NCBI GenBank assembly: GCA_965203325.1
Contig: OZ241875.1
Location: forward strand, 2,242,702 to 2,306,701
Length of the DNA stretch: 64,000 nucleotides
From: a bacterium
Lineage (GTDB): Bacteria > UBA8248
Direction: 5' to 3'
Positions within the stretch are counted from its first letter, which is position 1; the number at the start of each line of letters is the position of its first letter. This document shows positions 1 to 37,371 of the stretch, one piece after another. Below the pieces are notes generated by a model that was not told the DNA's origin, did no database searches, and saw nothing but the letters and a program-made list of their open reading frames with translations. The position numbers and the translations under genes were made by a program.

Positions 1-637
1 TCATGCAAAATTCAGAGCGGCTGAAAAAGGGCGTGCGCTCCACACCGGCGTGCGGGCCTTTTCTTGTCGTATCGTCTACGCCTTCGGGGGTCTCTTTCTT
101 CCGGGGACCATGCACCCGCCAATCGCGTACATGGCATGCGGCGCAGGCCAGTCCACTCATCTCCAGTTCAGTATTGTGGACCGGATTTTTCCGCCAGTTC
201 GCCAGAGGGCCAGCGCCAAACTTCGCGCGTTTTTGCTGTTCCGCCAAGGGCGCGTGGCACTCGTTGCAGTTTTGCGCTCCCCCGGGATTCGTCTTCCACA
301 TATCGACGAGTTGCCCATATATGCCCGGACTCATCGCCTTGGCGTGAAGCGTGGTTCTCCACTGTTTGTACTGCTCGGGATGACAACTGCCGCAACGCTC
401 CGGCGAAAGAGAGCGTTCAGCGCCTCTGTATGATTTCGGCGCCTCGCCCATGGGAGGCAATGGATAGCGGAAGTATTCTTTCGCGAAATCCCGCCAGCGC
501 TTCCATTCTTTGGGAATCCCTTTTTTTTCCGATGCTTGCACGGAGGGAAAGATGAAGTTTTTTGATATCTTCCGGGAAAACGCCGGGAGAGCGAGAAAAA
601 CAACGGAAACGATACAGATCCCGAGTTTCAAGCGCAT
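1..637 (-). CDS. Multihaem c-type cytochrome. The N-terminus lies in the window and the C-terminus runs off the left edge.
   Basis: Manual minus-strand translation from ATG at 637-635 gives MRLKLGICIVSVVFLALPAFS (signal peptide) followed by three CxxCH haem motifs (CGSCH, CNECH, CAACH). An AGGAAG SD lies 6 nt upstream of the ATG. It is absent from the ORF track because no in-window stop exists. Confidence 0.72.
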   Translation of the reverse strand, partial: MRLKLGICIVSVVFLALPAFSRKISKNFIFPSVQASEKKGIPKEWKRWRDFAKEYFRYPLPPMGEAPKSYRGAERSLSPERCGSCHPEQYKQWRTTLHAKAMSPGIYGQLVDMWKTNPGGAQNCNECHAPLAEQQKRAKFGAGPLANWRKNPVHNTELEMSGLACAACHVRDWRVHGPRKKETPEGVDDTTRKGPHAGVERTPFFSRSEFCM

Positions 638-919
638 TCCATGCTTCCTGTTACGGCGGCCCGCCTGCCTGACCAGTTTCATTTCACCTGACGACACCCG
701 TGTAAACAAGTTCCTGAGAAAACCCGAGAAATCGTAGTGCTGCTCCACGCCCGAATCTATTGTGGGCTGAAAGCCCTTTTTTTCTCAACAGGCGTATTCC
801 ACACAAAGTTCATGGCTGAAACCCTGGGAAACGATATCACCCGGTACAGGTTTTACTTGATGAATCGAATTGGATAGGGTCTGTCAGAACAATCGAACCA
901 GACCCGACAATTCGGAGGC

Positions 920-1375
920 ATGATGAATTTCGAGATACGTCCGGCCACTATCGAGGACACGGAAACTATTGTCCAATTCAACATCGAGATGGCCCTGGAG
1001 AGTGAAAACCTTCGTCTGGAGCCCGAAAAAGTCCGCCGGGGCGTGGAAAAATCCCTCGCCGACCCTTCGCTGGGACAATACTATCTCGCGCACCGGGGCG
1101 ACGAGATTCTGGGGCAAATCCGGGTCACCCTGGAGTGGAGCGACTGGAACAACGGCCAATACTGGTGGATTCAGAACGTGTATGTCGTTCCGTCTGAGAG
1201 AAACCAGGGCATTTACAAAGCCTTGCACCATCACGTCAAAAATCTCGCCGAACAAGCGGGCGCCTGCGGCCTGCAGCTATACGTCGACGCGCAAAACGCG
1301 GCGGCCCAGGCGGTTTACAAGAACCTGAACATGGAGGAAAGCCACTATCTGATTTTCGAGCAAAGAGGAGATTAA
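920..1375 (+). CDS. GNAT family N-acetyltransferase
   Basis: 151 aa; acetyltransferase fold motifs (QYWWIQNVYVVPSERNQGIYKAL...). Confidence 0.75.
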   Translation: MMNFEIRPATIEDTETIVQFNIEMALESENLRLEPEKVRRGVEKSLADPSLGQYYLAHRGDEILGQIRVTLEWSDWNNGQYWWIQNVYVVPSERNQGIYKALHHHVKNLAEQAGACGLQLYVDAQNAAAQAVYKNLNMEESHYLIFEQRGD

Positions 1376-1860
1376 CGACCCTCTTGATTCCTCTTGAGGG
1401 GGATGACATCCGCAGGCTTTTGCGCGTCATCCCGGCGGCGCCCCCGCCAGGAAGAGGGCCAGACATACCGCACACGCCACAGGGTTCGGGCCGCACCGCC
1501 TACCGCCCACGTGAGCGTGCTGCCCGCGTTTCGCGTTCTTTTGCCGAGCGAGCGAAACGCTTTTTTACCGCCTTCCTCGCCGATGGAGACGAGGCGCGAG
1601 GTCGCCTCTTTCGCCGCGCCGATGGGGCGGAGGGCCTGTGCGATCGCCTGTCGCAAGACCCATTTCAGCATCAGGCAAAACACGACGGAGAGAGCGAAAA
1701 AGACGCCCAGCACCTTGAGGCCCCGCGCGGGCTCGTCCACTATCATCACGCTCGTCTGCGCGATGCCGTAGAACGCCAGGGCCACGATCCCCAGACAGAC
1801 GGCCACGGCGCCCCCTGAACGCACTATCAACCGCATGATGCCGAACATGTTCGTCTCCAT
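1372..1860 (-). CDS. Hypothetical small membrane protein. The Arg-rich C-terminal half is doubtful.
   Basis: The N-terminal ~80 aa contain two hydrophobic helices. The remainder is low-complexity and may be a read-through artefact. Confidence 0.3.
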   Translation of the reverse strand: METNMFGIMRLIVRSGGAVAVCLGIVALAFYGIAQTSVMIVDEPARGLKVLGVFFALSVVFCLMLKWVLRQAIAQALRPIGAAKEATSRLVSIGEEGGKKAFRSLGKRTRNAGSTLTWAVGGAARTLWRVRYVWPSSWRGRRRDDAQKPADVIPLKRNQEGR

Positions 1861-1993
1861 CCCCTGTCGTTGCCGGAAAACGCATCCGATCCATCAAGAA
1901 TACCCATTTGCGAAGCCAAAATCCAGCGCGGTTATTTCACCTCCGGGAGATATTTCCGTTGACGCGCGAAACCTCTCGTTCTATGTTCACTAG

Positions 1994-3322
<1,329 letters not shown>

Positions 3323-3866
3323 AACCCATATAACGCTTTAAAAACCAACCGTTTGCATTTTCAGTTTCATCCCGGCCGAAAAATCCGGGGTTCCACCCCC
3401 GCCGCTCCCGTCCGGCAATTCCCGAAGGGCGCACGGAGCGGAAACCTTTGCAGAATCTTTACCCACCGCCGCCGCCTTCGCTGATACCATTCAAGCCGTT
3501 TGAGCAGCCTCGAAGGGTGTTTGGAGAGGCGACGGATGAATCCGGCGGGGGACGCCGAGTTGCTTCGCCCTCATGGACGAGTCGTCGGCGGGCCGGATAC
3601 GCCGCGCGGGGGTCAAAGGCCCCGCACAAGGGTCTTCCCGCCCCGGAGACGGGAGCGCGGTCCAGTCGCGCGGATGCGCACCCGGATTCCGGCCGGTTGT
3701 CCGCCTTGTTGGCTCGGGCGGCTTCGGTCGATTCCTCCCGAAGCGGAAAGCCCGAACGCGGGGTCTCCCCGCGCGGCCCACCCCACGCCCCGAACACGGC
3801 AATCGCTCACTCTTCAATCGCGATTGACCCCGACACGGCTCATCGCGCCCTGAAGGCCCGCAACTC

Positions 3867-4207
3867 CCCGCATTGCATTTCCCCGCATTTGCTGTCATGG
3901 CGGGACCGGCCGGTCGTGGCAGAATCCTCCTGCGTCGCGGCCTGGCGGCGTCATTTCCCAGGAAATTTAATTTTCAGAAATACCCCGTCAATTTATCGAT
4001 ATTTATCGAATTTTACGGGAATTTTCAGGAATTCCATTTTCTCGAACGAAACCGCCCGGCTTCGCCATCATACGCGCCCGCGCCCCGAGCAGCGCGACGG
4101 CAATTGCGGGCAAATGCGGGTCGTTTCGAACGGGATGCGGAGAATTTCGTCCGGACGCCGGGCGGGAGCGGTGAGCGCTTCGCCGCAAATGCGGGCAAAT
4201 GCGCCCC
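3867..4207. repeat. Six copies of CCCGCATTTGC-like motif in both orientations, bracketing an AT-rich ~100-bp segment (3952-4050) that contains ATTTATCGA x2
   Basis: Direct reading: ccccgcattgc / ccccgcatttgc at 3867-3892, and the reverse-complement pairs at 4101-4120 and 4185-4207. Confidence 0.5.
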
Positions 4208-4311
4208 GGCGCGCGAGGGATGGAGACCCGGACGGAGGATGCGGAATCCGACCCGGCCGTCGCGGGTCAATCGCGACCGAAGAGGGGCCGGTGAAAAAGT
4301 CTGGCATGCGA

Positions 4312-4500
4312 CCCCTACGAAGATCGCTCTCCACCGAGGAAAATTTCAAATCAACTCCCCCCTTGAGGGGGAGTCGAAGAGGCCGAGCCTTGGCGAAGGC
4401 CGATTCGGTGGGGGGAGGTTTTTATCTGTGGCTTGTCCCCCCACCGATTCGGTTTCGGGTTTACACCCTCACCTCATCGACTCCCCCTCAAGGGGGGAGT
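4312..4500. repeat. Family-A complex palindromic element (REP/MITE-like), copy 1
   Basis: Nested inverted repeats: outer AACTCCCCCCTTGAGGGGGAGTCG / CGACTCCCCCTCAAGGGGGGAGT and inner CCGATTCGGTGGGGGGAG / CTCCCCCCACCGATTCGG. The same architecture recurs at 13364, 19011 and 40236. Confidence 0.8.
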
Positions 4501-4687
4501 GAAATTTAGCGCTCTCCTTCTGGGACTTTTCACCAGCCCCCTCCTCAGGGGGCATCGTTTTTACCCCCCTGACAAGGGGGGGTAGGGGGGGGTGGTTTTC
4601 CAGTCGAGAGGGGCGCCGCCTCTCCCCGCTCGGGATTGATTAAAAACCCCATCTCGCCATGCTAGAATAATGGGAGCGGCTCTCGCG

Positions 4688-4774
4688 CGGAGGGATGGCC
4701 GAGCGGCCGAAGGCGGTGGTCTTGAAAACCACTGAGCGAAAGCTCCGGGGGTTCGAATCCCTCTCCCTCCGCCA
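4688..4774 (+). tRNA. tRNA-Ser (anticodon UGA)
   Basis: Acceptor stem GGAGGGA/TCCCTCC, anticodon loop CTTGAAA, long variable arm, GGTTCGAATCC T-loop, encoded CCA. Confidence 0.9.
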
Positions 4775-4876
4775 GTTCATACGGGCGGGCCTGGAGAAAG
4801 CCTGAGTTTCTCGTAGCCGTTCCATGCGGGCATCGCCGCTCAGCCATTGCCATTCACCGACCCCTTTGCACCGTCC

Positions 4877-4998
4877 GCACGGCACCCCGACCCGCCGCTA
4901 TACTTGCCCGGAACATTTCTGCAAAATAAGACCATGGCATGCAGTCCACCGGAACGGCGACCGATAAGGGCGGTCGAGGAGACCGGATAGCGACATGG
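4877..4998. repeat. Left 122-bp direct repeat (DR-L) bounding the low-GC island
   Basis: ~93% identical to 10759-10880 (gcacggcaccccgacccgccgctatacttgcccggaacatttctgca...gcgacatgg). Confidence 0.85.
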
Positions 4999-5192
4999 GG
5001 ACTCCCAAGTTAGGCAAAGGTGATGACAGGACCATAGTGAACGGCTGGTGCGAGGGCGGGCGCACCGTCCATCAAGTAAGCATTTGATATGGGGGAAACA
5101 CTCCGCCACTACATGAAGACTTCTCGATCAGCCAAGCCAAACAGCTATGTAGGAGATACCTGCTACTTGAAAACTCACACGTCGGAGCGCTT

Positions 5193-6419
5193 ATGATTAG
5201 ACCCCCAGATATAAAGGGACTGGCGCGGCGTTGGCGTCGTGCGCCGCGACGATGGGGCCACCCTCTACACTCTTTGTGCTCGTACTTCGCCATGTTTCCG
5301 CCACAGGTTCCGTACGTATTCATTCGATGGCTTACTAAGCCTGGTGATGTCGTCTATGATCCGTTTGCCGGACGCGGCACTACACCTATGGAGGCATGCC
5401 GGATGGGACGCGTTGGCATGGGTTCGGATGCTAATCCCCTGGCGCACCTCCTTACCGCAGGCAAAGTAGACGCTCCAACCACTGATGAGGCACATACTCG
5501 CTTGAGAGTCTTGCGTGAGAATTGTGTCCCGGAGTGCCCGAGTTCAGCCCCTGCTGACATCCAGATGCTCTACTCAGGCCGAGTCCTCGGGCAGCTCATA
5601 TGGTTGCGAAATGCACTTAAAGTTAGCCAGCGTGATGACCGATTCCTAATGGCACTTCTCTTAGGGGTGATGCATGCCAACTATAGGCCCGGTGGACCGG
5701 TACACGGCTTGTCGATCAGTATGCCGAACACATTTTCGATGTCGGCGGGATATGTCCGGCGATATATTGAGGAGCATAGGCTCGTACCACCCGATGTTGA
5801 CGTCTTCGATCTTCTCGATTGGAAGCTGGGCAGGATGAGCTTGCCTGAGGCTACGGCAACGCGAGGCACCGCTTGGCAGCAGGACGCACGCAACCCCATG
5901 GCCACGACAATTTGCGACCGGCCTGCGAAGCTCGTGTTCACATCTCCCCCTTACCTTAGCGTCATCAAGTATGGGAAATACAACTGGGTGCGACTCTGGA
6001 TGCTCAAGCAAGAACCGGAAGTGGTTGATCGAGCACTCGTCGCGACTGGGTCTCTGCCGAAATACCTGCAGTTCATCAGTGCCGTCTTGACGCAGATGGC
6101 CTCAGCGATTCGGGAGGATGGATACCTCTGTCTGATGATCGGCGACGTTTATGATCGTTGCAAGGGAAAAACTACGAACCTCGCTGCCCAGGTCTGGGAG
6201 GAAGCTGCGCAACCACTTGGTTGGCGCCTTCATGGCATTGTTACTGACCGACTTCCAACTAAACACAAAGTCAGTCGAATTTGGAAGCAAAGGCGTGGGG
6301 AAGCGACGAAGACGGACCGTGTACTTATATTATCCCGCCCTGGAAACAACCTTACTCAGCTGCCTCCTCTTAGCCCTATACGGTGGGAGCCAGCTTCCGA
6401 GTGGGCTGCAGGAGGATAG
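5193..6419 (+). CDS. DNA methyltransferase (N6-adenine/N4-cytosine, PF01555-like, motif I then IV order)
   Basis: Motif I/X context FPPQVPYVFIRWLTKPGDVVYDPFAGRGTT, and motif IV TSPPY further C-terminal. Confidence 0.85.
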   Translation: MIRPPDIKGLARRWRRAPRRWGHPLHSLCSYFAMFPPQVPYVFIRWLTKPGDVVYDPFAGRGTTPMEACRMGRVGMGSDANPLAHLLTAGKVDAPTTDEAHTRLRVLRENCVPECPSSAPADIQMLYSGRVLGQLIWLRNALKVSQRDDRFLMALLLGVMHANYRPGGPVHGLSISMPNTFSMSAGYVRRYIEEHRLVPPDVDVFDLLDWKLGRMSLPEATATRGTAWQQDARNPMATTICDRPAKLVFTSPPYLSVIKYGKYNWVRLWMLKQEPEVVDRALVATGSLPKYLQFISAVLTQMASAIREDGYLCLMIGDVYDRCKGKTTNLAAQVWEEAAQPLGWRLHGIVTDRLPTKHKVSRIWKQRRGEATKTDRVLILSRPGNNLTQLPPLSPIRWEPASEWAAGG

Positions 6420-6424
6420 AAGTA

Positions 6425-8383
6425 ATGTTGATCAACGAGAGACTTAGGAACTTGGCGACAATAAATGTCTTCGAGGATGTCGCGATTGAGAACTCGTTTA
6501 TCGGGCGACCATTCTACTTCGACTTTAACAAGATGAAGATCTTGTCGAACGACCACTGGAAGGAAATGGTGGGTGGGGTCCCGGCTGGGGCTTTTCTTGC
6601 TGCACTATTCGACAACGACACGGAACATCCAGAGGTCGTACTTCTTCGTGTCCTTGGGCCAACTGCGCTTCCAACTGATTCAGATGTCGTCGCTGCAATG
6701 GTGGATCACTACAAGGAGAGTGAAGGAACGGAGACGGACTCGGGAACGCTCGACAGCTATACTAGGTACGAGTTTCAGTTCTCAGGCCTAGAGTGTAGAG
6801 TGCTCGGTTCTTTTTATCAGAATGCACAAGGCAATACATGCTTCGGGGCTGATGTCGACAACTTCTACGGCCCCAACAACTACTCGGTCTACAAACCTTC
6901 CGGTAACGTTTTGGAGTACCTAGTGAATTTCCGTGAAGGCGACGGACTTCCCGGAGGACCTGGAGATCAAAGAATCGGTGAAATCCGCTACTCGTCAAGC
7001 CAGCGGCACACTCAGGATGCTTCTGTCCCTCTGTATGTGTCGGCCCTTGACTACTTAGGAAAACGCACAGCGCTCTTCGGAATGAAGCGTACAGGAAAAT
7101 CCAATACCGTCAAAAAGATCATTCAGGCAACTGTAAACTTGGGATCAGCGGGAATTGAGCATGAGGGTGAGCAGCTTGTCCCAATAGGGCAGATCATTTT
7201 CGATGTAGACGGTGAATATGCCAATGCGAATCTACAAGACGAAGGAACCGCGGTTTTTGAGCTTTTTGAGAACGAGACCATCCGATACTCCACCCACCCA
7301 AAAGAAGGCTTCCGTGTGCTCAAGGTGAACTTCTACAACGAGGTTGATCTGGGATTCGAGCTCATATCCAGTGATCCGAGAGTCGCGGACGACACAACGA
7401 GATTTGTGTCGAACTTTAGAAGCGTAGAACTGACGCAGCCTGACCAAGAGAACGTGTCTGAGATAAGGCGCTGGGAGCGACGTAGGGCTGTGTATTTTTG
7501 CATTCTGCACGAGGCAGGTTTCGCTGCGCCTCAGACTTTCCAGGTTCGCTTTTCGGCTAATGCTGAAGTTCGAAACGCTGTGGCTCTTAACTTCGAGGCA
7601 GACCGTAGGGGATATATGCGCCTCACTCTGCAGCAAGCCTCCGCATGGTGGCAACGTTTTTGGGAAGTGTATGCCGCCGACCCCAACGGTTGCTTTGCAC
7701 AATACAAACGCGACCACGATAGCCGACCTTGGGCTGAAGATGATCTTGAGGCCCTGCTCACAATGCTCACAAGACGGCGCACGTCCGGAGGGGCAGTCGA
7801 CTGCAGCGGTTTTCGTGTCTTGCGGGAGATCGCCGAAAAACACACATCGACACTACAGACTTCATTTGAGGATGACATCCTTCAGCAGTTACGTGAGGGG
7901 AGAATCGTAATTGTTGATCTCTCGCTCGGAGATGACATCACGAAGCGTTTCTTCTCCGAGAGAGTATGCCGTCGTATATTCGATGATGCAATGCTCCGCT
8001 TCACTCAGATGCAGACACAAAACTTCATTCAGATGTATTTTGAAGAAGCGCACAATTTATTTCCGAGGAAAGAATCTGCCGACCTAACCCAGATCTACAA
8101 TCGTATTGCAAAGGAGGGTGCGAAGCTCCGACTTGGACTCGTCTACGCCACCCAGGAAGTTAGCTCGATATCAGCGAACGTTCTCAAAAACACACAGAAC
8201 TGGTTCGTGTCGCACCTTAACAATCAAGATGAGCTTCGCGAGATAGCTAAATATTACGACTTCGAGGACTTCGTGGATAGCCTTCGACGAACGACCGACA
8301 AAGGGTTCATTCGAATGAAGACGTACTCCAACGCGTTCATTGTACCCGTGCAGATCGACCGGTTCACAGTGGCGGAGACATAA
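6425..8383 (+). CDS. HerA/DUF87-like P-loop ATPase (FtsK-HerA superfamily) with a ~200-aa N-terminal domain of unknown function
   Basis: Walker A GMKRTGKSNT, Walker B-like IVIVDLS plus EEAHNLFP (DEAH-like), and the HerA C-terminal motif KLRLGLVYATQEVSS...NTQNWFVSHLNNQDE. The start is probably ATG 6425 after GGAGGA; the track starts at 6383. Confidence 0.65.
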   Translation: MLINERLRNLATINVFEDVAIENSFIGRPFYFDFNKMKILSNDHWKEMVGGVPAGAFLAALFDNDTEHPEVVLLRVLGPTALPTDSDVVAAMVDHYKESEGTETDSGTLDSYTRYEFQFSGLECRVLGSFYQNAQGNTCFGADVDNFYGPNNYSVYKPSGNVLEYLVNFREGDGLPGGPGDQRIGEIRYSSSQRHTQDASVPLYVSALDYLGKRTALFGMKRTGKSNTVKKIIQATVNLGSAGIEHEGEQLVPIGQIIFDVDGEYANANLQDEGTAVFELFENETIRYSTHPKEGFRVLKVNFYNEVDLGFELISSDPRVADDTTRFVSNFRSVELTQPDQENVSEIRRWERRRAVYFCILHEAGFAAPQTFQVRFSANAEVRNAVALNFEADRRGYMRLTLQQASAWWQRFWEVYAADPNGCFAQYKRDHDSRPWAEDDLEALLTMLTRRRTSGGAVDCSGFRVLREIAEKHTSTLQTSFEDDILQQLREGRIVIVDLSLGDDITKRFFSERVCRRIFDDAMLRFTQMQTQNFIQMYFEEAHNLFPRKESADLTQIYNRIAKEGAKLRLGLVYATQEVSSISANVLKNTQNWFVSHLNNQDELREIAKYYDFEDFVDSLRRTTDKGFIRMKTYSNAFIVPVQIDRFTVAET

Positions 8384-8386
8384 CTT

Positions 8387-9733
8387 ATGGGATATGGCTC
8401 CAAGGGACGAAAGCCTATAGAGCGCGCCAGTAAGATTGCGCACGCAGAGATTATCAAAAACCCGGAAGTCCAAGCTTATATGAGAGAATGTATAGTCCCA
8501 TCTGCGCCTGGCGTGGAGTCACTCGACTCTATGATTGAGACGCTCGGCGAAGTGGATACCTCAGAAGTGACTGCGGTCGTCGCTGTGGATGGTGGCTACA
8601 CAGAGACCTATGTGCGTGAGGAGTATCCTTCGGCCTCCATTACGTTTTTCACATTCGGTCCCCTATTGTTTGAACTTGCTGACCTCCGCGCATTGGACAA
8701 AAAGAGGTTCATTGCGCCAGAAGAGCTCGCTCGCCTTAAGAGAATCGAGCGCTACACCCTTGTGTTGCCGACGAAGGGTATTCGGCGTCAGGACCAACAG
8801 TCCCTGTCAGCCACGATCCGGCGCACTGTATACGAGTTCTTCACAAAGCCACGTGGGGAAGACGATAATCTCATGGTCAGCCTCAAGTGGTTTCTATTCA
8901 GGCGTTGGAAGCGGAATCCAGACAATGGTCTAGTTCAGATTGTTGAGCACTGTCCATCAGATTGCGGTCACGGAGCAACGAGTTTCCTTTTTGAGGAGCA
9001 GACTGAGAAAAGCTGTCCTAAGTGCGGGCGACCAGTTTATCTTACGGATGTCTTCCGGCTGCAAGAGCGGATCGATGAGGAGCTAGGTGCGGGAGGAATC
9101 AGTGCCTATGTAATGACAATGCTGGAACAACTAGTTCTCATACACCTGTTCTACAACATAATAGAGCGCCTCAAGCCCAGCCTGATGCGGAGCATCTTAT
9201 TCATCAAGGATGGACCATTGGCCTTTTTCGGTCTGGTTGCTCCGCTGTGTCGGCCCATGCGGGAGCTCGTGCAGCACCTACTCAGCGAGCCCGGAGGACA
9301 AATGGGGCCAACGCTCAGGCTCGCCGGATTAGAGAAGAGTGGAGCATTTGTCGAACACGCTGCAGCGATCCAGGACCTTATGGAGCCTAACTCCTACATG
9401 ATTGTTAATGATGGCTATATCCGGCGACATATCGTGCCAGGAGAGGTCGGCGTGGTGTATGGACAAAACACATACTACGGCCAAAAAGTGTTGTTCCGGG
9501 CACCGGGTGGGGAGATGCACGTCGTGACGATCCCGGCCCAAAGCTATATGGCAGATCCGAATCCCTCGGAAATGCCCCACCTCGAAGATGTGCTGACACT
9601 CATCGCCGAGCTTCGATGCAGTATGCACGATAATTCGTTGATTCCTGTTGCATTGGCAAACAAACTCGTCTCGCTTTCTGACTTCCCGAGCCAGCGCATC
9701 CTAACGACTTTCGCGAGAGAGAACATCCAGTGA
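8387..9733 (+). CDS. NurA-like / RNase H-fold putative nuclease with internal zinc ribbon (partner of the upstream ATPase)
   Basis: AVDGG near the N-terminus (NurA motif I is xDGS), a CPSDC...CPKCG zinc ribbon, and acidic motifs IKDGPL and IVNDGY. It is translationally coupled to the upstream gene (4-nt gap). Confidence 0.4.
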   Translation: MGYGSKGRKPIERASKIAHAEIIKNPEVQAYMRECIVPSAPGVESLDSMIETLGEVDTSEVTAVVAVDGGYTETYVREEYPSASITFFTFGPLLFELADLRALDKKRFIAPEELARLKRIERYTLVLPTKGIRRQDQQSLSATIRRTVYEFFTKPRGEDDNLMVSLKWFLFRRWKRNPDNGLVQIVEHCPSDCGHGATSFLFEEQTEKSCPKCGRPVYLTDVFRLQERIDEELGAGGISAYVMTMLEQLVLIHLFYNIIERLKPSLMRSILFIKDGPLAFFGLVAPLCRPMRELVQHLLSEPGGQMGPTLRLAGLEKSGAFVEHAAAIQDLMEPNSYMIVNDGYIRRHIVPGEVGVVYGQNTYYGQKVLFRAPGGEMHVVTIPAQSYMADPNPSEMPHLEDVLTLIAELRCSMHDNSLIPVALANKLVSLSDFPSQRILTTFARENIQ

Positions 9734-9848
9734 ACTAGCCCTGCACTTTCCAACTTCTAGAGTTCTATGGGTCTTGTTTCTTTAATGCAATGGATATTTA
9801 GACTATTGAGTTTGAAAGAGTTTCCGGGACGGAGACAAATTTCGCGAT

Positions 9849-10451
9849 TTGATCGAGGTAGAAAGTGTGGCTAAAAAAAATACTACTGGGCTTGACAAGG
9901 TTCCAAAGCGTTTGTTTTTAGACTCTTCTGTTTTGCAAGTACTTCTAACCTATGGTGAGTTCATCTACGATGGAGGAACAATACCTTCTCAAGCTCGCAT
10001 CTGGTCGATTCCCAAAGGGCTAGAGAATTTAGATGCTCTTAAACAGATCATGTTTGTAGGTAACCGTGCTTTGTTTGAGTTTGCACTGTCCTCTCAAAGT
10101 CTAGAAGAAGTAGCGCAACGGAAGGATGCAAAATATATGGACTGGGCAAGAGATGTCCTCGTGTATTGGAGAAATAAATTGGCTAGTTACGATGAGGTTG
10201 GTATTCCAGCGTTTAGTGGGTATGGCAGCAAAGTTGCCACGAAGCTTGAATCTAAAAAATTCGGTTACCTGAGCAATAAAGATAAGGCATTGTTGGTAGA
10301 TGCCCTGAAGCTAGAATGTGAGGCCTTCATCACGATGGACCGTAGACTTGTCCGGAACACATTCCACCTAGAAGCCCATGTTGCGATTAAAGTTTTAGAG
10401 CCAATAAAATTCTGGGGCCTTTTGCAACCTTGGGCGCCGCTATTTGTTTAA
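9849..10451 (+). CDS. PIN-like domain protein (putative)
   Basis: RLFLDSSVLQVLL (β1 Asp), a conserved Glu, and EAFITMDRRL (T-x-D). This is the lowest-GC gene of the island. Confidence 0.35.
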   Translation: MIEVESVAKKNTTGLDKVPKRLFLDSSVLQVLLTYGEFIYDGGTIPSQARIWSIPKGLENLDALKQIMFVGNRALFEFALSSQSLEEVAQRKDAKYMDWARDVLVYWRNKLASYDEVGIPAFSGYGSKVATKLESKKFGYLSNKDKALLVDALKLECEAFITMDRRLVRNTFHLEAHVAIKVLEPIKFWGLLQPWAPLFV

Positions 10452-10758
10452 ATTGCTGAAGCGAATCACGCTAAACTGTGGGAAAAGAGCCCTGTATGGC
10501 AGCGCACTATGGGCTGAGGAACATCCAAACTTTCAGATTTATCAGCAAGGAGGCCAAGAGAGCGGACACGGGCACCGGATACCGATACTCAAATCGGGAG
10601 CGAGCGATTAGATATCCATCGAACTCTCTTCAATCAACGTAGTGGAAAACAAGCCCTCGTAACGAGAGATTAGGGAACGGATCACAGGAATCTCTAAAGC
10701 CTTTGACCTGAACGATTCTCCATATCCCCTCATCGACACCATCAATACCGATCCATCA

Positions 10759-10880
10759 GCACGGCACCCCGACCCGCCGCTATACTTGCCCGGAACATTT
10801 CTGCACAATAAGACCATGGCATGCAGTCCACCGGGACGGCGACCGACGGGTGCGGTCGAGGGGACCGGAAAGCGACATGG
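10759..10880. repeat. Right 122-bp direct repeat (DR-R) of the island
   Basis: Matches 4877-4998. Confidence 0.85.
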
Positions 10881-13306
10881 CGATTGCCGGACGGGAAAAG
10901 GAACGCGGGGCGAAGGGCCAATGCGAGGGCGCGAACGGCGTTCATCCGCGCCGCCGCCTCGTGAATGGGGGGCGCGGCGGCGGCGCCTTCACGCTGAGCC
11001 GGGCCTCCGCTTGCGCCGTCCTCCTTTGCGCGATGCTCATTCTCACGAACTGCGGCGGGGGCGGCTCGGGAGCGCGCCCCCAAGCCGCGGTGACGCCCGA
11101 AACCCCGCAGCCGCAACCACCCCCGCCAGAGCCAGTGCAGCCGCCGCAACAACCGCAGCCGTCGCCGCAACAACCGCAGCCGCAGGAATGCGTTCCGCTC
11201 CAAGACGGGACCTGCCCCTCGGTCGACGATTTCAACAGCCGGGCGCGGCGGCTCGCCGGCACATACGCCGTACACCGGAATTTCAGGAACCAGCCGAGTC
11301 TCGCGGCAATCGGCGCAGACCGAGCCTACGCCCACGTCCACCTGCTCGAGGGCGCGGGCGCCGCGCCGGGCGAGGGCGTGACCATCGGCTTCATCGACAG
11401 CGGCATCGATACCGCACACCGGATGTTCGCGGGAAAGTCGGTTGACGAGGTGTTCATCAGCGGCGCCTCGAACGAGACGGGCGCCAGGTTCTCCCACGGC
11501 ACGGCCGTCGCGAGCGTCGCCGCCGGAATCCGGGATCACACCATCGCCCGCGGCCCGCACGGCGTCGCCTGGGGCGCCGACATCGCCATGTTCGCCATTC
11601 CCTTACAAAGCCCGGACGGCCCCTACAACCCCGTCTCTCTCACCAGTTCGGGAGGCGCAGACGACTCGTGGGCGTCGCGGCTCGACCGGGTCCTGGCGTG
11701 GCGAAACGGCCCGAGGCGCGCCGACATCCTGAACCTGAGCATCGGCTATCAGGGCATCATCGACGACTACGACGAGGACGACCTCCGCGCCAGCTTCGAG
11801 CGGACGATCGCCGCGATGGCGCAGGCGGGAGCCATTGATAAGGCGGTTTTCGTCTGGGCGGCCGGCAACGCCCACGGAAGGGAATGCGCTTCGTCGGTGG
11901 CCCACTGCGAGAACGGAAAAATCAACGCCGTTTCGCCCGAGGTGCTGGCGGGCCTCGCCGCGCGGGTCGAGGAACTCCGGGGACATACGGTCACCGTCGC
12001 GGCGCTGGGGCCGGGCGGAACCATCGCGGACTTCTCCAACCGCTGCGGCATCGCGGCGGACTATTGCATCGCGGCGCCCGGAGAAGACGTCCGGGTCGCC
12101 TGGTTCGGACCCCATCCCGACACGTCCGCGCCCATCCGGGGCGTCGGGAGGAGCAGCGGAACATCCGTCGCCGCGCCGATGGTGTCCGGCGGGCTCGCCA
12201 TCATGAAGCAACTCTTCCGGGACCAGCTCTCGAACACCGAACTGGTGACGCGCCTCTTCGAGACCGCCGACGACACCGGCGCCTACGCGAACAGGGCCGT
12301 TTACGGCCGGGGAAAACTCGACTTGGCCGCCGCCACGCACCCCGTGGGCGTCCCGGCGGTCCCCGTCGCCGGGAACGCGAACGGGGCCGGGAGCAATCTG
12401 CGCGCCACGAGCCTGCGTCTCGGGGCGCCGTTCGGGAACGGCCTCACGCGGTCGGTCGGGGACCACGAAATCATGGCGCTCGACGATCTGGGCGCGCCGT
12501 TCTGGTACCGGCTGGGCGATTTCGTGACGACGGCGAAGGTCCCGGCGATGGACGCAAGGGTCAGGCGCTTTCTGGCGGGCGGGACGCTAGGGGTCAGCGC
12601 GCAGGAGACCACGGCGGAAGCCGGCGGCGGCCACCTCTCGCTCGCCGAGGGGGGGATGACGGCGACGTTCACCGGCCGGGCGGGCCTTTCCGCCTCGGTG
12701 TTCGGGACGAACCACGAGCACGACGTGGCGGGCGGGACACTCGGCTGGCGGCCGGAAGGCGCCCCGCTCGGCCTGCGCGTCGGGTGGATAAGCGAGGGCG
12801 GAACCATCCTCGGCGGCGAGGGCCGGGGGGCCTTCGGGTCGCTGGCGGCGGACACCGCCTTCATCCGCCTCGAGGGAGACGTGAGGCTCGGCGCGTGGCG
12901 TCTCGGAGCGGATGCGGAATGGGGGAGCGCGCGCGCCCGGGCCCGGGGCGGGCTCATCGAGGAGGTATCGCCGATCTCGACCAGCGCGTTCGCGCTGCAC
13001 GCACGCGCCGCCGTGACGGATACGGACACCGTGCGGCTCGCCCTCTCACAGCCCCTGCGCGTCGAGGACGGCCAAGCGTCGCTGACTCTCCCTGCTGCGC
13101 GGACCAAATTGGGGCGGGTGCTGCGCACGTCCCTCACCTCGCCGCTCGCGCCCGAGGCGCGCCAGATCGACCTGGCCGCCACCTGGGAGAGGCCGCTGGC
13201 GGAGGGGCGGCTGCGCCTCGGCGTCGTCTGGAGCCAAAACCCCGGCCACAGCGCCTCCGCCAAGCCCCGGCTCACGTTTCTCGCCGGCTGGCAAAGGGCG
13301 TTCTGA
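10877..13306 (+). CDS. S8 subtilisin-family serine protease, lipoprotein with C-terminal beta-barrel (NalP/SphB1-like autotransporter)
   Basis: Catalytic triad motifs DSGID, HGTAV, GTSVAAP; lipobox LILTNC; Pro/Gln-rich linker; C-terminal ...AGWQRAF. The start is uncertain: ATG 10877 (inside DR-R) or GTG 10961. Confidence 0.85.
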   Translation: MAIAGREKERGAKGQCEGANGVHPRRRLVNGGRGGGAFTLSRASACAVLLCAMLILTNCGGGGSGARPQAAVTPETPQPQPPPPEPVQPPQQPQPSPQQPQPQECVPLQDGTCPSVDDFNSRARRLAGTYAVHRNFRNQPSLAAIGADRAYAHVHLLEGAGAAPGEGVTIGFIDSGIDTAHRMFAGKSVDEVFISGASNETGARFSHGTAVASVAAGIRDHTIARGPHGVAWGADIAMFAIPLQSPDGPYNPVSLTSSGGADDSWASRLDRVLAWRNGPRRADILNLSIGYQGIIDDYDEDDLRASFERTIAAMAQAGAIDKAVFVWAAGNAHGRECASSVAHCENGKINAVSPEVLAGLAARVEELRGHTVTVAALGPGGTIADFSNRCGIAADYCIAAPGEDVRVAWFGPHPDTSAPIRGVGRSSGTSVAAPMVSGGLAIMKQLFRDQLSNTELVTRLFETADDTGAYANRAVYGRGKLDLAAATHPVGVPAVPVAGNANGAGSNLRATSLRLGAPFGNGLTRSVGDHEIMALDDLGAPFWYRLGDFVTTAKVPAMDARVRRFLAGGTLGVSAQETTAEAGGGHLSLAEGGMTATFTGRAGLSASVFGTNHEHDVAGGTLGWRPEGAPLGLRVGWISEGGTILGGEGRGAFGSLAADTAFIRLEGDVRLGAWRLGADAEWGSARARARGGLIEEVSPISTSAFALHARAAVTDTDTVRLALSQPLRVEDGQASLTLPAARTKLGRVLRTSLTSPLAPEARQIDLAATWERPLAEGRLRLGVVWSQNPGHSASAKPRLTFLAGWQRAF

Positions 13307-13363: not shown

Positions 13364-13538
13364 CCCCCCCTACCCCCCCTTGAGGGGGTCGGGCTTCCCG
13401 AGGGGAAAGCCCGACAGAGGCCGAGTCCTTTGGACGAAGGCCGATGTGGTGGGGGGACATGCCACAGAAAAACTCCCCCCACCGAATCGCTTTCGGGCTT
13501 ACGCCCTTAGCTCTTCGACTCCCCCTCAAGGGGGGAGT
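13364..13538. repeat. Family-A palindromic element copy 2 (its left end is a family-B arm CCCCCCCTACCCCCCCC)
   Basis: Same nested inverted-repeat architecture as 4312-4500. Confidence 0.75.
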
Positions 13539-13675
13539 TTATTCATAATCTTATGTCGATTGGGAAATCCATTCTCTGTTTGTGGCAGGGCTTCTCCAAC
13601 AACCCCTCGCGGGGCCGATTTCTCCTGCGCAGGATAGCCGCCGCCCCGTCTTATGATATAGAATGGCGGCCCTCG

Positions 13676-13767
13676 CGGAGAGATGGCCGAGTGGCTGAAG
13701 GCGCTCGCCTGCTAAGCGAGTAGGCTGGGAAACCGGCCTCGAGGGTTCGAATCCCTCTCTCTCCGCC
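13676..13767 (+). tRNA. tRNA-Ser (anticodon GCU)
   Basis: Acceptor stem GGAGAGA/TCTCTCC, anticodon loop CTGCTAA, long variable arm, GGTTCGAATCC, CCA. Confidence 0.9.
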
Positions 13768-13885
13768 ACGCGCAAACCCGCCTTGTGTTACATTAACTCC
13801 CGGCACATCACCGGCGCCGCCTCGTTCCTCCCGGTGGTTCGGATGAAGACGACCCTTGCCCGGAACCGGCAGGAGGGAGAATACG

Positions 13886-19010: not shown

Positions 19011-19162
19011 CTTCACTCCCCCTTTGAGGGGGAGTCGATGAAGCCGAGCGATTTGTGCGAAGGCTGAATCGGTGGGGGGACGATTCTAAAATAAAAGCTC
19101 CCCCCACCGACTCGCTTGCGGGCTTCGCCCTTACCTCGTCGACTCCCCCTCAAGGGGGGAGT
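19011..19162. repeat. Family-A palindromic element copy 3
   Basis: CACTCCCCCTTTGAGGGGGAGTCG ... CGACTCCCCCTCAAGGGGGGAGT with inner CGGTGGGGGG/CCCCCCACCG. Confidence 0.75.
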
Positions 19163-19417
19163 TGATTCGTTTTTTGTGGGCTTTTTCAACAACCCCCTTC
19201 AACAAGGGATTCTCCCGTAGTAGGACAGGTCGCGACCTGTCCCTCTACACAACCGCAATCGCTCCCTCATCGTCCAGAATCGGTTCTAAAGAGAAATGCT
19301 GCGGGCATCGCCAATTCACGCGGAATGGGGTTACAATGGATTTTTAGTCATCTGGTCGCAAATTCCCCCGGCGCAAGTCTTCTGTTCGTCGCCGAACAAG
19401 GAAAGGCCGCCGTACGC

Positions 19418-21051: not shown

Positions 21052-21131
21052 GGCGCGAACCCCACGGAGAAGAATTCCAACCGGTGAATGAAGAATCGCA
21101 GGGACAGGGCCTCCTCGGGGTATAAAGGCAA

Positions 21132-21271
21132 CCCCCCCTACCCCCCCTTGTCAGGGGTCAAACGCGAGTGATGAACGAGCGTTTGCATAAGCCATTGACG
21201 AGAAACACATCGTCTTGCAAAACCTCCCTCTTCGGTCGGTTTTGACCCCTGACAAGGGGGGGTAGGGGGGG
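21132..21271. repeat. Family-B MITE-like element: terminal inverted repeats CCCCCCCTACCCCCCCTTGTCAGGGG / CCCCTGACAAGGGGGGGTAGGGGGGG around an 88-bp core with an internal hairpin
   Basis: Direct reading; related arms occur at 4565-4592, 26953-27117 and 37459-37482. Confidence 0.8.
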
Positions 21272-21320
21272 TTGGTTCTCAAGGCGAGAGCCTGCGCCGC
21301 CGCCCGGTTTCGGGTTTGAC

Positions 21321-21719
21321 TTAAACGTCCTCCACCAGCTCCCACAGCGTTCCCATCGTGCTCTTGGGCTTGATGAAGGCGATGAGGTGTCCGCCGAAGC
21401 CGGGCCTCGACTTCTCATCAATCAACTCGAAGCCCTGCGCTTTCATCTCGGCCAGCACGCCGTCGATGTTCTTCACGTCGAAGGCCACGTGGTGGAGGCC
21501 CTCGCCGCGCTCCTCGATGAACTTGGCGAGAGGCGAATCCTGCTGGATGGGCGAGATGGGCTCGATGAGGTCGCCGCCCAGGTCCAGCATGGCCAGATCG
21601 GTCGCGCCGTCGGCGGAAGTCTCCCGCGCGAGCAGCTTCGCGCCCATGCCCTCGTACAGGGCGATGGCGGCGTCCATGTCCTTCACCGCGACGCCGATGT
21701 GATGAAATTTGTTGAACAT
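21321..21719 (-). CDS. mce: Methylmalonyl-CoA epimerase (VOC family)
   Basis: MFNKFHHIGVAVKD...GLHHVAF motifs. Confidence 0.8.
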   Translation of the reverse strand: MFNKFHHIGVAVKDMDAAIALYEGMGAKLLARETSADGATDLAMLDLGGDLIEPISPIQQDSPLAKFIEERGEGLHHVAFDVKNIDGVLAEMKAQGFELIDEKSRPGFGGHLIAFIKPKSTMGTLWELVEDV

Positions 21720-26952: not shown

Positions 26953-27117
26953 CCCCCCTACCCCCCCTTGTCAGGGGGGTATAAAAAGGCGATGCGCCCC
27001 ACCGGTCTGAGGGGGCTTTGATTTTCTTGCCCCCTGACAATAAGGGGACAGAGGTCGCCGGGTGGAGCAGCTGAGGGGGTTTTGATCTTGCCCCCCTGAC
27101 AAGGGGGGTAGGGGGGG
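26953..27117. repeat. Family-B MITE-like element with TIRs and two internal direct repeats GAGGGGG(C)TTTGAT(T)TTCTTGCCCCCTGACAA
   Basis: Direct reading. Confidence 0.8.
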
Positions 27118-27270
27118 TTGCCTTTATGGGATTTCCCTTTCAAGGGGGTTGCCATTACCCTCTCAGGGGCTTCTTCAACAGCTCCCAAGGGGGGAATGAT
27201 TTTCGGGCGCTCGCCACTTCATTCGAAAAACTGGTTGGTGAGGTGTCCAAACCCACCGATAGCCTTCCCC

Positions 27271-34350: not shown

Positions 34351-34351
34351 A

Positions 34352-36076: not shown

Positions 36077-36094
36077 CGACCGGTCCGAAGCCGG

Positions 36095-37105: not shown

Positions 37106-37371
37106 ATTTGCTTCTCCTTTTACGGTGAAACGGATTTCCCAAGAACAAGTCTGACGAGAACTCGTTCGCTGCGAGTTTTTCCGACGCGGTTACGCTGCTC
37201 CCCAAATTTTGCGATTGGATTCATTAGAGCAGGTTCGAAGGGTCGGGTCAAACCATCTGACGGCAGGGCGAAGCAGTCTCCCGAAGGAGCCGTTGAAAAC
37301 CCGGTGAGCCGCCCCTGCCAGGATCGCTCCCCATCCAGGAGAATTCCAAATCCGCTTCCCTCTTGGAAGGC

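Follow-up and report, generated by a model that had tools for sequence, protein, structure and literature searches.

A low-GC block lying between tRNA-Ser(UGA) and an S8 (subtilase) protease gene in a 64,000-nucleotide stretch of bacterial DNA (the window) is best explained, with a probability that we put at about 60%, as an integrase-less composite defence islet in a hot spot, acquired without a site-specific recombinase. The block (5007-10758) has a GC content of 0.509, against 0.628 for the remainder of the window and 0.580 for the lowest other 5.75-kb segment. GC at third codon positions (GC3) was 0.56, 0.56, 0.59 and 0.41 for its four genes, versus 0.83-0.89 for the SerRS, S8 protease and ABC genes. 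Together with the empty sites of relatives (L095, L011, L001 and L005/L004), this foreign codon composition indicates that the block was horizontally acquired. A first-pass annotation, made from the sequence alone, had described a low-GC island of horizontal origin beside the tRNA gene, with a PIN-like gene as its most AT-rich member, and these points were all confirmed; the PIN-like gene has a GC content of 0.43 and a GC3 of 0.41.

Direct repeats and the protease gene

The block is bracketed by direct copies at 4877-5006 and 10759-10888, ~91% identical, downstream of tRNA-Ser(UGA) (4689-4774, forward strand; ARAGORN and Rfam). A repeat search of the window paired 4871-5006 with 10753-10888 (136 nt, 90% identity); in the alignment, near-identity begins at 4877/10759, with a single mismatch over the first 76 nt. 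Sub-patterns of 47 nt and 28 nt each occurred exactly twice in the 64-kb window, with an expectation of 0 (100 shuffles). Weaker similarity, past a 9-nt indel, reaches 5073 and 10946 and brings the duplicated unit to ~190-197 bp. The repeats reported at first pass are thus real, but their length of 122 bp was an underestimate, 130 bp being aligned at ~91%.

The repeat corresponds to the 5′ region of the S8 protease gene (10877-13306, forward strand; 809 aa; Pfam PF00082, 2.6e-31): a -10-like box, a leader of ~118 nt, the ATG and codons 1-26. The protease is single-copy in the window, and P0162 is a recorded 809-aa product identical to it. In 13/13 related loci the leader was single-copy and directly 5′ of the protease ATG. 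Searched with a degenerate 26-nt core pattern, metagenome_contigs yielded a single chance match (L092) and viral_contigs nothing. The repeat is not tRNA-derived, as had already been noticed at first pass, nor, across the window, the related loci and these collections, is it the dispersed sequence that had been envisaged there as a possible objection.

The left copy (4877-5073, forward strand) has a TATACT -10-like box, the leader and, from an ATG at 4995, 26 codons of a protease frame that stays open as far as a TGA at 5085-5087. Most changes private to this copy are GC-to-AT, and its CDS remnant is 71% identical to L001 versus 57% to the right copy. It is the decaying pseudo-5′ end of a different (L001-type) protease allele. 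The right copy (10759-10946, forward strand), comprising promoter/leader and first 26 codons, is resident and functional. It is also mosaic: 10759-10779 is identical to the left copy and L001-like, 10780-10805 is a 26-mer invariant in all genomes compared, and the sequence from 10806 onward, including codons 1-26, is L095-like (92-94%). The invariant 26-mer appears to mark a crossover site. The repeats are two alleles of the protease 5′ region and implausible as att sites, and the protease is the target gene whose 5′ region was duplicated.

Immediately ahead of the right copy lies a pseudogene relic (10550-10662, forward strand) of the last ~31 codons of an ABC-transporter ATPase gene (tblastn, 23/31 identical, E 3e-10), interrupted by an in-frame stop but with the gene's original stop codon still present. 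It is followed by a spacer (10663-10758, forward strand) whose orthologue in L006, L007 and L017 separates the ATPase and protease genes; together they form the 'U' region. The relic is nearest to L006 (81%), with 68% identity to the 3′ end of the window's own ATPase, which belongs to an intact ABC operon on the minus strand (33273-37272). In more distant relatives the ABC-ATPase gene adjoins the protease, and the relic was kept in no sampled Clade-1 relative. The final ~200 bp of an island drawn to 10758 are consequently not cargo, although the block itself stands.

Could the 122-130-bp repeats nevertheless be attL and attR sites of an integrative element that is degraded or mobilised by a helper, as the first-pass annotation thought possible, with a recombinase that was lost or acts in trans? 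We regard this as quite unlikely. Like classical tyrosine-integrase tRNA islands and prophages, whose attL and attR derive from the tRNA 3′ end, the block is tRNA-adjacent, foreign in composition, flanked by direct repeats and matched by empty sites. Relatives bear real integrase-type scars at this tRNA, and related cassette contigs carry a faint Phage_integrase gene 2 kb off in one case and a serine recombinase 5 kb off in another. However, none of the four island ORFs matched integrase, transposase or resolvase families (Pfam, PADLOC, NCBIfam), in agreement with the lack of a recombinase remarked on at first pass, and no recombinase was present within ~10 kb either side in the gene table of the syntenic L095. 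Searches for inverted repeats pairing the island ends, for terminal inverted repeats or defined element ends, and for viral relatives all returned nothing. Unlike those of classical tRNA islands, the repeats begin 102 nt past the tRNA and are unrelated to it; they are the target's leader and 5′ CDS, with graded decay and no sharp core, and the right one runs directly on from an ancestral gene relic. The ends are not element-specific. Seven other contexts of the cassette differ in their flanks and have no ends in common, and across L079-L091 the flanks are wholly unlike those in the window. True tRNA-3′-end att scars, with 16-nt repeats, do exist at this tRNA in L095 and L003, but they look different and are not used by the island, so that the 'classic tRNA-island signature' fails as a mechanism here.

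A variable locus and probable import by homologous recombination

The interval from tRNA-Ser(UGA) to the S8 protease is a variable hot spot. Four tRNA-to-protease empty sites were found, in L095, L011, L001 and L005 (L004 being likewise empty, with L005), the kind of site that the first-pass annotation had suggested looking for. Both flanks of L095 are 95.5-96.7% identical to the window, and it has one leader copy. By tblastn, the island genes were absent from 78 protease loci, except for a 30% MTase in L002, which has a different islet at this locus (380 aa, 333 aa, MTase and TIR) and an IS. The other objection envisaged at first pass, that relatives might have the four genes here with host-like composition, found no support, as the relatives lack them at this locus. 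On the right, tRNA-Ser(GCU) (13677-13768, forward strand) is a landmark kept in all relatives.

The flanks of the window are L095/L011-like, and the affinity turns L001-like across the tRNA-Ser(UGA) gene, which is identical (86/86) in the window, L095, L011 and L001. The 'T' spacer between tRNA and repeat (4775-4876, forward strand) is of L001-like ancestry, being 88% identical to L001 versus 80% to L095 and L011, a likeness owed partly to private changes in L011 and L095, the latter with an att scar of its own in T. Window and L001 have a 17-nt deletion in T in common. The first 21 nt of both repeat copies are identical and 90% similar to L001, versus 67-71% to L095 and L011. The incongruence is carried chiefly by the 17-nt indel, the repeat's first 21 nt and the second half of T. 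These switches of affinity, at the tRNA gene and at the invariant 26-mer, point to an L001-like lineage as the source and to homologous recombination as the means of import, with tRNA-Ser(UGA) as the presumable left anchor.

The block from the tRNA gene to 10780-10805 would thus have entered by double-crossover homologous recombination, its donor being an L001-like relative that already carried it, and the two most conserved sequence blocks would have acted as recombination anchors. The structure itself may first have arisen in the L001-like lineage. There, a linear fragment containing cassette, PIN gene, ATPase relic, spacer, leader and protease would have recombined homologously inside the protease gene, while its other end would have been attached to codon 26 of the resident protease by an illegitimate join, as in the process described as homology-facilitated illegitimate recombination. 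Such a join would leave the resident promoter, leader and 26 codons behind as the 'left repeat'. Partial gene conversion could later have homogenised the first ~76 nt of both copies. No step would need a site-specific recombinase, and illegitimate joins were probably involved in the original assembly of the island. The donor arrangement was seen in no genome sampled.

To account for the 76-nt near-identity of the two copies, gene conversion or a crossover at that place has to be assumed in addition.

Integrase-less islets in chromosomal hot spots of horizontal transfer are reportedly exchanged through homologous recombination between conserved flanks. The present case resembles them in having no recombinase, cargo that varies among relatives, conserved core flanks (SerRS, tRNA-Ser, protease, tRNA-Ser) and affinity switches at its borders, one of which looks like an illegitimate join. 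It differs in that ~190 bp of the downstream gene, with promoter, leader and 5′ CDS, stand duplicated on either side of it, and in bearing the relic of an ABC ATPase that is the target's neighbour only in other lineages.

The same gross structure would result from RecA-dependent, Campbell-type integration of a ~6-kb circle by a single crossover at the chromosomal leader, a route that we consider rather unlikely. The circle would have held the cassette, the PIN gene and a ~400-bp fragment of a protease locus, from the ATPase 3′ end to protease codon 26. Integration would yield direct repeats without a dedicated recombinase, and recombination between them could excise the island. Circularly permuted, the island would present relic, spacer, leader and protease remnant as one uninterrupted piece of the arrangement in L006, L007 and L017; the right copy turns resident-type inside the invariant 26-mer, as expected of an attR-like product; and the repeats are direct, with a near-identical stretch of 76 nt in common. 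However, a recipient-type (L095/L011-like) T spacer and left 21 nt are then predicted, whereas both are L001-like and the 21 nt match the right copy. A single source is also not obvious for a protease remnant of L001-3 type and an ATPase relic nearest to L006, L007 and L017, and neither a circular junction nor a second integration was found in any collection searched.

Relic and remnant represent opposite ends of a single ancestral segment, which is what an in-situ tandem duplication from ATPase 3′ end to protease 5′ end would produce, with foreign DNA inserted at the joint and the island lost by repeat-repeat recombination in every other sampled relative. Such a deletion would indeed recreate the tRNA-T-leader-protease structure of L011 and L095. 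We nevertheless find this scenario very unlikely: the island would have had to be lost independently many times, the GC3 of the cargo is unameliorated and speaks for recent arrival, and the copies are not uniformly diverged but differ in allele type after the ATG (57% identity, 9-nt indel), which suggests that they coalesce outside this lineage. Moreover, the 17-nt segment that L011 keeps at the T/leader junction, shorter in L095, is missing from the window's left copy.

That the two copies are different alleles, in an uncultured sponge-symbiont lineage of metagenome-assembled genomes with co-occurring strains, might also suggest a chimeric join of two haplotypes during assembly. Such an artefact is highly improbable, since the left remnant runs seamlessly into junction DNA and cassette, the ATPase relic precedes the right copy, and a chimera would still demand real molecules containing each of these two junctions. 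A 4.39-Mb contig is, moreover, the recorded source of the NurA, PIN-like and protease products.

A composite island

The island is composite, made of a 4.6-kb MTase-HerA-NurA cassette, an independent PIN-like gene and the ~200-bp ATPase relic. The 'four-gene immune operon' of the first-pass annotation therefore holds for three genes, which form a restriction-modification-like immune cassette, but not for the PIN-like gene, which is distributed separately (L083-L085).

Unique junction DNA (5074-5132, no strand assigned) lies between the protease remnant and the conserved cassette; ~120 bp of upstream cassette sequence common to L079, L087 and L091 is missing in the window, truncated at this point. 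The first gene (5193-6419, forward strand) encodes a DNA methyltransferase of the N6/N4 family (Pfam PF01555, 1.6e-14; PADLOC MTase_II, 1.2e-39), with motif I (FAGRGTT) close to the N-terminus and SPPY further on, and 84-87% amino acid identity to the MTases of L079 and L091. The second (6425-8383, forward strand) encodes a TdpA-like HerA/FtsK-type ATPase (DUF87; Pfam PF01935, 3e-12; PADLOC HerA, 1.6e-19) whose best PDB match is TdpA (8wet, 9.6e-17). Five other cassettes carry another allele of its central domain (aa ~260-540; nt 7252-8020), and homology to L079, L087, L088, L091 and L080 is limited to 5133-7251 and 8021-9743.

The third gene (8387-9733, forward strand) encodes a TdpB-like, NurA-like nuclease of RNase H fold, into which a zinc ribbon with four cysteines is inserted; NCBI and JGI list its homologues as 'NurA domain-containing'. 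Residues D68, D275 and C189/C193/C210/C213 are invariant, and the AF2 model, of moderate confidence (pLDDT 63), has 8wfd_G of TdpAB as its top Foldseek match (E 1.1e-6). Cassette homology ends at the NurA stop codon. The MTase-DUF87-NurA gene order also occurs on a Deferribacter megaplasmid.

The PIN-like protein (9849-10451, forward strand; 200 aa) has 41 homologues in other contexts, unlinked to the cassette in other genomes. D25, E87 and D151 are invariant, and the Asp of a TMDR motif is not fully conserved. Its AF2 model (pLDDT 88) has VapC/PRORP as top PDB neighbours, at E values of at least 0.19 only. It is predicted to be a nuclease and an independent add-on to the cassette.

Predicted function of the cassette

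As an island the block is ordinary; its novelty lies in the cargo. By homology, the MTase-HerA-NurA cargo would constitute an ATP-dependent restriction-modification system, in which the methylase would mark self DNA and the HerA-type hexameric translocase would load the NurA-type nuclease onto unmarked DNA. The proposed loading is modelled on TdpAB acting against phosphorothioate-free DNA. Tdp is described as a phosphorothioate-based restriction-modification system whose modification requires no gene but tdpC (PMC12914056); 8wet and 8wfd are TdpAB structures, and TdpABC is credited to An et al. 2025 in PMC12914056 and PMC13223576.

TdpABC restriction is what the cargo most resembles, with a methylase replacing TdpC, making it a moderately novel variant. 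Both are three-gene clusters of a modification enzyme and an ATPase-nuclease pair, and TdpA and TdpB are, respectively, the best PDB sequence match of the island HerA and the best structural match of the NurA-like model. In contrast to TdpABC, the predicted system modifies DNA by an N6/N4 DNA methyltransferase, its HerA has a swappable central domain, and between its NurA-like protein and TdpB no sequence match is detectable.

The two-gene SIR2-HerA and DUF4297-HerA systems, which act against phages, likewise combine a HerA-family ATPase with an effector in a mobile defence context, and the C-terminal ATPase region of the island HerA matches the PADLOC and NCBIfam 'anti-phage HerA' models, though at 43-47 bits, far under the NCBIfam cut-offs of 800-850. 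Unlike in those systems, the effector is a NurA nuclease, and the methylase implies self/non-self marking over abortive infection. Archaeal and bacterial HerA-NurA pairs for DNA-end resection in double-strand-break repair have the same two folds in the same gene order; unlike these, the island cassette is methylase-linked, has no Mre11/Rad50 neighbours, and shows a patchy distribution, horizontal mobility and foreign codon usage.

The island occupies a variable locus

The low-GC block between tRNA-Ser(UGA) (4689-4774) and the S8 protease gene had been put forward in the first-pass annotation as a foreign island. Comparison with relatives, which are sponge-associated MAGs (several labelled Nitrospinota), agreed with this view. 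L095, the syntenic relative whose flanks are 95.5-96.7% identical to the window on both sides, has one leader copy. In L011, L001, L005 and L004 the site is empty, with tRNA-Ser followed by the T spacer (4775-4876 in the window), the leader and then the protease directly. Empty sites of the predicted form (tRNA-Ser, T, a single leader, protease) thus exist in five relatives. None of the 78 related protease loci contained the island genes, and a version of the same genes with host-like composition was accordingly not seen among them.

Other relatives carry other DNA at this position. At 8544-8700, L095 also has a 150-bp insertion flanked by duplicates of 16 nt from the tRNA 3′ end, which look like the scar of a classical integrase-mediated element. 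L003 has just a tRNA-3′-end remnant beside T (∼9764), scar-like as in L095. In L002, a different low-GC islet immediately follows the tRNA (2464-9830) and T contains a Mutator-family IS; the islet encodes 380-aa and 333-aa proteins without Pfam match, an N6_N4 MTase and a TIR-domain protein. In L007 and L009 the interval is occupied by an amidase and an ABC-transporter operon of host-like GC. Shared conserved flanks thus enclose different or no cargo among relatives, as expected of a hot spot.

An intact ABC operon encoding a substrate-binding protein (SBP), a permease and an ATPase is present elsewhere in the window (33273-37272, minus strand). It shares 89.5% nucleotide identity with the L007 operon located between tRNA-Ser(UGA) and protease. 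Since it lies ∼20 kb off and inverted, the locus has been rearranged in this lineage.

The enclosed DNA has a GC content of 0.509, compared with 0.628 for the rest of the window, and in no other 5.75-kb segment does it fall below 0.580. For the four enclosed genes, GC3 is 0.56, 0.56, 0.59 and 0.41, against 0.83-0.89 for the SerRS, protease and ABC-transporter genes; together with the empty sites, this bears out a foreign block. The proposal that the island lacks a recombinase also held, since Pfam, PADLOC and NCBIfam scans found no match to recombinase families among the four island ORFs or the flanking ORFs. The gene table of L095 lists no integrase or recombinase within ±10 kb of the locus. 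A transposon, IS or MITE was considered and rejected: domain scans detected no transposase domain in the island, the repeat search found no inverted repeats pairing its ends, and what is duplicated is ∼190 bp of gene sequence.

A duplicated protease leader brackets the island

A repeat search of the window returned a single long direct pair (4871-5006 and 10753-10888, 90% identity). Pairwise alignment showed that the copies are near-identical from 4877 and 10759, with one mismatch in the first 76 nt, then ∼83% identical to 5006 and 10888. Weaker similarity continues to 5073 and 10946 if a 9-nt indel is allowed. The pair of direct repeats described earlier is therefore real, but its length, given as 122 bp, was understated and is actually ∼190 nt. 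A 47-mer and a 28-mer of the repeat each occur twice in the 64-kb window, where shuffled sequences predict no occurrence.

The repeat starts at 4877, 102 nt past the end of the tRNA gene, to which its sequence bears no relation. It consists of a TATACT box, a ∼118-nt leader, an ATG and the first 26 codons of the S8 protease gene, whose own ATG (10877) lies within the right copy (10759-10946) and for which an identical 809-aa product is on record. The arrangement, without an integrase, is thus not the classic tRNA-island signature it had been taken for, and the repeats are a duplicated protease 5′ region, implausible as att sites. We conclude that the island itself is ordinary recombination-driven hot-spot turnover, with the twist of a duplicated gene leader that mimics att sites. 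Apparent ‘att-like’ repeats can be mere duplicated gene 5′ regions, and island predictors keyed to tRNA-plus-repeat signatures would mis-call this island.

With the protease as query, the repeat was found to be single-copy in 13/13 related loci, each time abutting the protease ATG. A search with a degenerate 26-nt core of this sequence produced a single chance match in metagenome_contigs (the AT-rich L092) and none in viral_contigs. With two copies in 64 kb here and just one at each related 22-kb locus, the repeat is not a dispersed genomic repeat, which removes that objection to the first-pass view. A further paralogue of the protease was rejected as the source of the repeat, since the window has none. 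In the left copy (4877-5073) the ATG is still present (4995), and the frame behind it runs for 30 codons to a stop at 5085-5087. The changes private to this copy are largely GC-to-AT, as expected of a decaying non-functional copy.

The ∼118-nt leader (10759-10876, and 4877-4994 in the left copy) is more conserved than coding sequence in L001-L009, L011, L017, L020 and L044, where it was compared directly upstream of the protease ATG and where the proteases are just 62-87% identical. It contains a hairpin, CGACCG-N7-CGGTCG, with a variable loop. RNAalifold on 15 leaders recovered the hairpin as conserved, with almost no covariation, and Rfam gave no match in repeat or leader at E≤1. The leader may be an uncharacterised cis-regulatory element.

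Close homologues of the protease (45-87% identity; loci L001-L078) are found in sponge-associated MAGs of many phyla, with taxa including Nitrospinota, Binatia, Acidobacteriota, Spirochaetia, Nitrospirales, Gammaproteobacteria and Alphaproteobacteria. Some genomes hold two homologue copies (e.g., L010 and L011), and the window's protease gene has a GC of 0.715, above the window average. Sponge symbionts appear to have exchanged the S8 protease gene itself by horizontal transfer.

The island is assembled from pieces of different ancestry

The MTase-HerA-NurA cassette (5193-9733) has nucleotide homology to seven other metagenomic contigs (L079-L082, L087-L091) at 72-84% identity. This homology spans just 5133-7251 and 8021-9743, covering MTase, HerA, NurA and ∼60 nt upstream, and stops exactly at the NurA stop codon. 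The neighbourhoods of the other cassettes are unrelated (beside a type I R-M system, between housekeeping genes, or between transposases), and no consistent recombinase or common ends were found across these contigs. A further ∼120 nt upstream are common to L079, L087 and L091. Since the window lacks them, the left cassette border (5074-5132) is a truncation and not an element end.

The fourth gene, encoding a PIN-like protein of 200 aa (9849-10451), belongs to a small family of 41 matches. It was rejected as a fourth cassette subunit, as the closest cassettes do without it and its homologues occur in other contexts: after a different MTase and an 890-aa protein in L083, and beside HAD hydrolases in L084 and L085.

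Between this gene and the right copy lies a relic of another locus. The last 31 codons of an ABC-transporter ATPase, with an in-frame stop, are preserved at 10550-10662 (23/31 identical to L007) and are followed by a spacer (10663-10758) that separates ATPase from protease leader in L006, L007 and L017. Both the C-terminal peptide and the spacer are of L006/L007 type. The window's own ABC operon was rejected as the origin of the relic, the two being just 68% identical compared with 76-81% for L006, L007 and L017. Relic and spacer reproduce the arrangement of these three loci, so this end of the island is a remnant of another lineage's protease neighbourhood.

Ancestry also changes along the flanks. 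The window is L095/L011-like left of the tRNA (1-4213, and the 9 nt that immediately precede the gene) and again right of ∼10806, up to 22.5 kb. The tRNA-Ser(UGA) gene is 100% identical in all four genomes compared. Beyond it, T is 88% identical to L001 but 80% to L095 and L011, and a 17-nt deletion in it is common to the window and L001. Over their first 21 nt the two repeat copies are mutually identical, and match L001 at 90% against 67-71% for L095 and L011. The following 26 nt are invariant across all genomes, after which the remainder of the right copy, including codons 1-26, is 92-94% identical to L095. The coding remnant of the left copy is 71% identical to L001 and 57% to the right copy. 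Affinity therefore switches twice, once at the tRNA gene, which does not vary, and once at the invariant 26-mer, the segments compared being short. Since part of the divergence in the first half of T is private to L011 or L095, the second half of T, the indel and the 21-mer carry the case for import.

The simplest reading of these affinities is that an L001-like lineage supplied the stretch that begins at the tRNA gene and ends at the invariant 26-mer (10780-10805). Import would have required two homologous crossovers, located in the two most conserved blocks available. A Campbell-type single crossover that integrated a circle with relic, spacer, leader and 26 codons would yield an identical map. 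It predicts a recipient-type T and recipient-type first 21 nt of the left copy, neither of which is observed, and we regard it as unlikely.

Under import by two crossovers, the left copy and the type-A remnant would be native to the L001-like donor lineage. The right-hand relic, spacer, leader and protease would have arrived there with the cargo, from a lineage that retained the ATPase beside the protease. Homologous recombination inside the protease gene could have brought in a linear fragment made up of cassette, PIN gene, relic, spacer, leader and protease, its free end being joined illegitimately at codon 26. Such homology-facilitated illegitimate recombination is known from natural transformation. 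A join of this kind would account for the type-A remnant, the truncated region upstream of the cassette and the relic.

That the repeats are att sites whose recombinase was lost or supplied by a helper is the worst fit to the identity of the repeat, to the loci of relatives and to the composite make-up of the island, and seems quite improbable. Misassembly would still need both junctions to exist in real DNA, and appears very improbable. Preferring import and illegitimate joining, we see the island as a case of integrase-free spread of defence genes among uncultured sponge symbionts, in which conserved blocks act as recombination anchors, in this instance a tRNA gene and a gene leader.

The cargo is a predicted TdpAB-like restriction system

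The cargo outweighs the island in importance. The MTase-HerA-NurA cassette belongs to a large family, with more than 2,200 NurA-like homologues scored and copies on several unrelated metagenome contigs and a Deferribacter megaplasmid. The gene order MTase-HerA-NurA is conserved in the window, L079, L080-82, L087, L088-90, L091 and Deferribacter pDF308; on the Deferribacter desulfuricans megaplasmid it reads MTase-DUF87-NurA. One Nostoc plasmid has the cassette without the MTase. A NurA profile search of viral_contigs gave no confirmed loci.

The first gene (5193-6419) encodes an N6_N4 DNA methyltransferase, which matches PF01555 and the PADLOC type II MTase model (1.2e-39). The HerA-type ATPase (6425-8383) matches DUF87 and the PADLOC/NCBIfam ‘anti-phage HerA’ models in its ATPase core only, and its best PDB match by phmmer is TdpA (8wet_A, E 9.6e-17, over aa 471-643). 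Its central domain (aa ∼260-540; nt 7252-8020) is 44-46% identical to five other cassettes, which share 72-93% among themselves in this domain, while the HerA termini are 85-100% identical. This pattern suggests that the central domain has been swapped between alleles, as a modular exchange within the defence cassette.

The NurA-like protein (8387-9733) has no Pfam or PADLOC match. Its homologues carry the source-database name NurA, and the profile displays invariant acidic residues and a four-cysteine ribbon. The best Foldseek match of its AF2 model (pLDDT 63, pTM 0.67) is 8wfd_G, the TdpB chain of a TdpAB-DNA complex (E 1.1e-6, prob 1.00, TM 0.42-0.51, identity 13%), followed by the Thermotoga RNase H-like nuclease TM1739. 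Searching the alignment profile against PDB sequences returned no meaningful match.

Two reports (PMC12914056; PMC13223576) describe Tdp as an R-M system based on phosphorothioate, with tdpC sufficing for the modification. The cassette resembles TdpABC in its TdpA-type HerA/FtsK ATPase, and generic R-M systems in the genetic linkage of a DNA methyltransferase to a nuclease. In contrast to TdpABC, the gene upstream of HerA encodes the N6_N4 methyltransferase and not TdpC, and there is no other cassette gene. We predict that the cassette works like Tdp but, as it has no TdpC, is not a Tdp member. The Tdp comparison, the methylase in the TdpC position and the recurrent gene order lead us to predict a methylation-dependent, ATP-driven restriction system acting like TdpAB, its closest characterised relative. 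The expectation of a defence-related cargo was supported. PADLOC matched the cassette to no named system and literature searches found no named MTase-HerA-NurA defence system. We regard the cargo as a variant of HerA-NurA/Tdp-type restriction that is moderately novel. Restriction of unmethylated DNA by this cassette, should it occur, would connect the classical, methylation-based kind of R-M with HerA-NurA translocase-nuclease machinery.

A bolder reading combines island and cargo. The island could be a RecA-dependent circular element without recombinase which uses a homology arm of its own target (ATPase 3′ end, spacer, leader and first 26 protease codons) to hop into protease loci, duplicating the promoter/leader. 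Its cargo would be an unnamed, widespread, methylation-dependent TdpAB counterpart (MTase-HerA-NurA), with the HerA central domain swapped like a specificity or anti-anti-defence module. If so, expression of the protease would be preserved, and a host promoter would become available to the cargo. We hold this reading to be unlikely.

In the 200-aa protein, D25, E87 and D151 are invariant in an alignment of 25 sequences and follow PIN order. The fourth acidic position lies in TMDR, where Asp is not fully conserved (TMER, TMEN and TLDH variants). The AF2 model has a pLDDT of 88, and its top PDB neighbours (PRORP, VapC and FitB; E at least 0.19, TM 0.31-0.55) are not significant. Neither Pfam nor a search of the alignment profile against PDB sequences gave a match. 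As for a VapB-like antitoxin partner, only a 35-aa ORF (9767-9874) is present upstream, overlapping the start of the gene, and the homologues in L083-L085 have no conserved small partner.

A second low-GC patch (44632-46414; GC ∼0.52 compared with 0.63) lies between the MFS transporter and SurA-like PPIase genes. It encodes a 302-aa protein without Pfam match and a 293-aa AbiEii nucleotidyltransferase toxin (PF08843, 2.4e-28), and looks like another small recombinase-free defence or TA islet.

The 353-aa ORF between SerRS and the tRNA (3448-4509) has no Pfam or NCBIfam match. It is 55-63% identical to its counterparts in L001, L002 and L005, and less conserved than its neighbours. It contains short tandem-like GCAAATGCGGGCAAATGCG motifs at 4100-4222, its 3′ end overlaps a REP-like palindrome, and perhaps not all of it is a real gene.

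Finally, two families of dispersed palindromic intergenic repeats (∼100-180 bp, REP/MITE-like, 75-97% identity) occur in the window, one at 4349-4503, 13416-13543, 19012-19167 and 40226-40407, the other at 4544-4644, 21129-21325, 26953-27120 and 37459-37482. tRNA-Ser(GCU) is located at 13677-13768. Copies immediately 5′ of tRNA-Ser(UGA) and immediately 3′ of the protease gene place these repeats on both sides of the variable locus; related copies are present in L001, L011 and L095.
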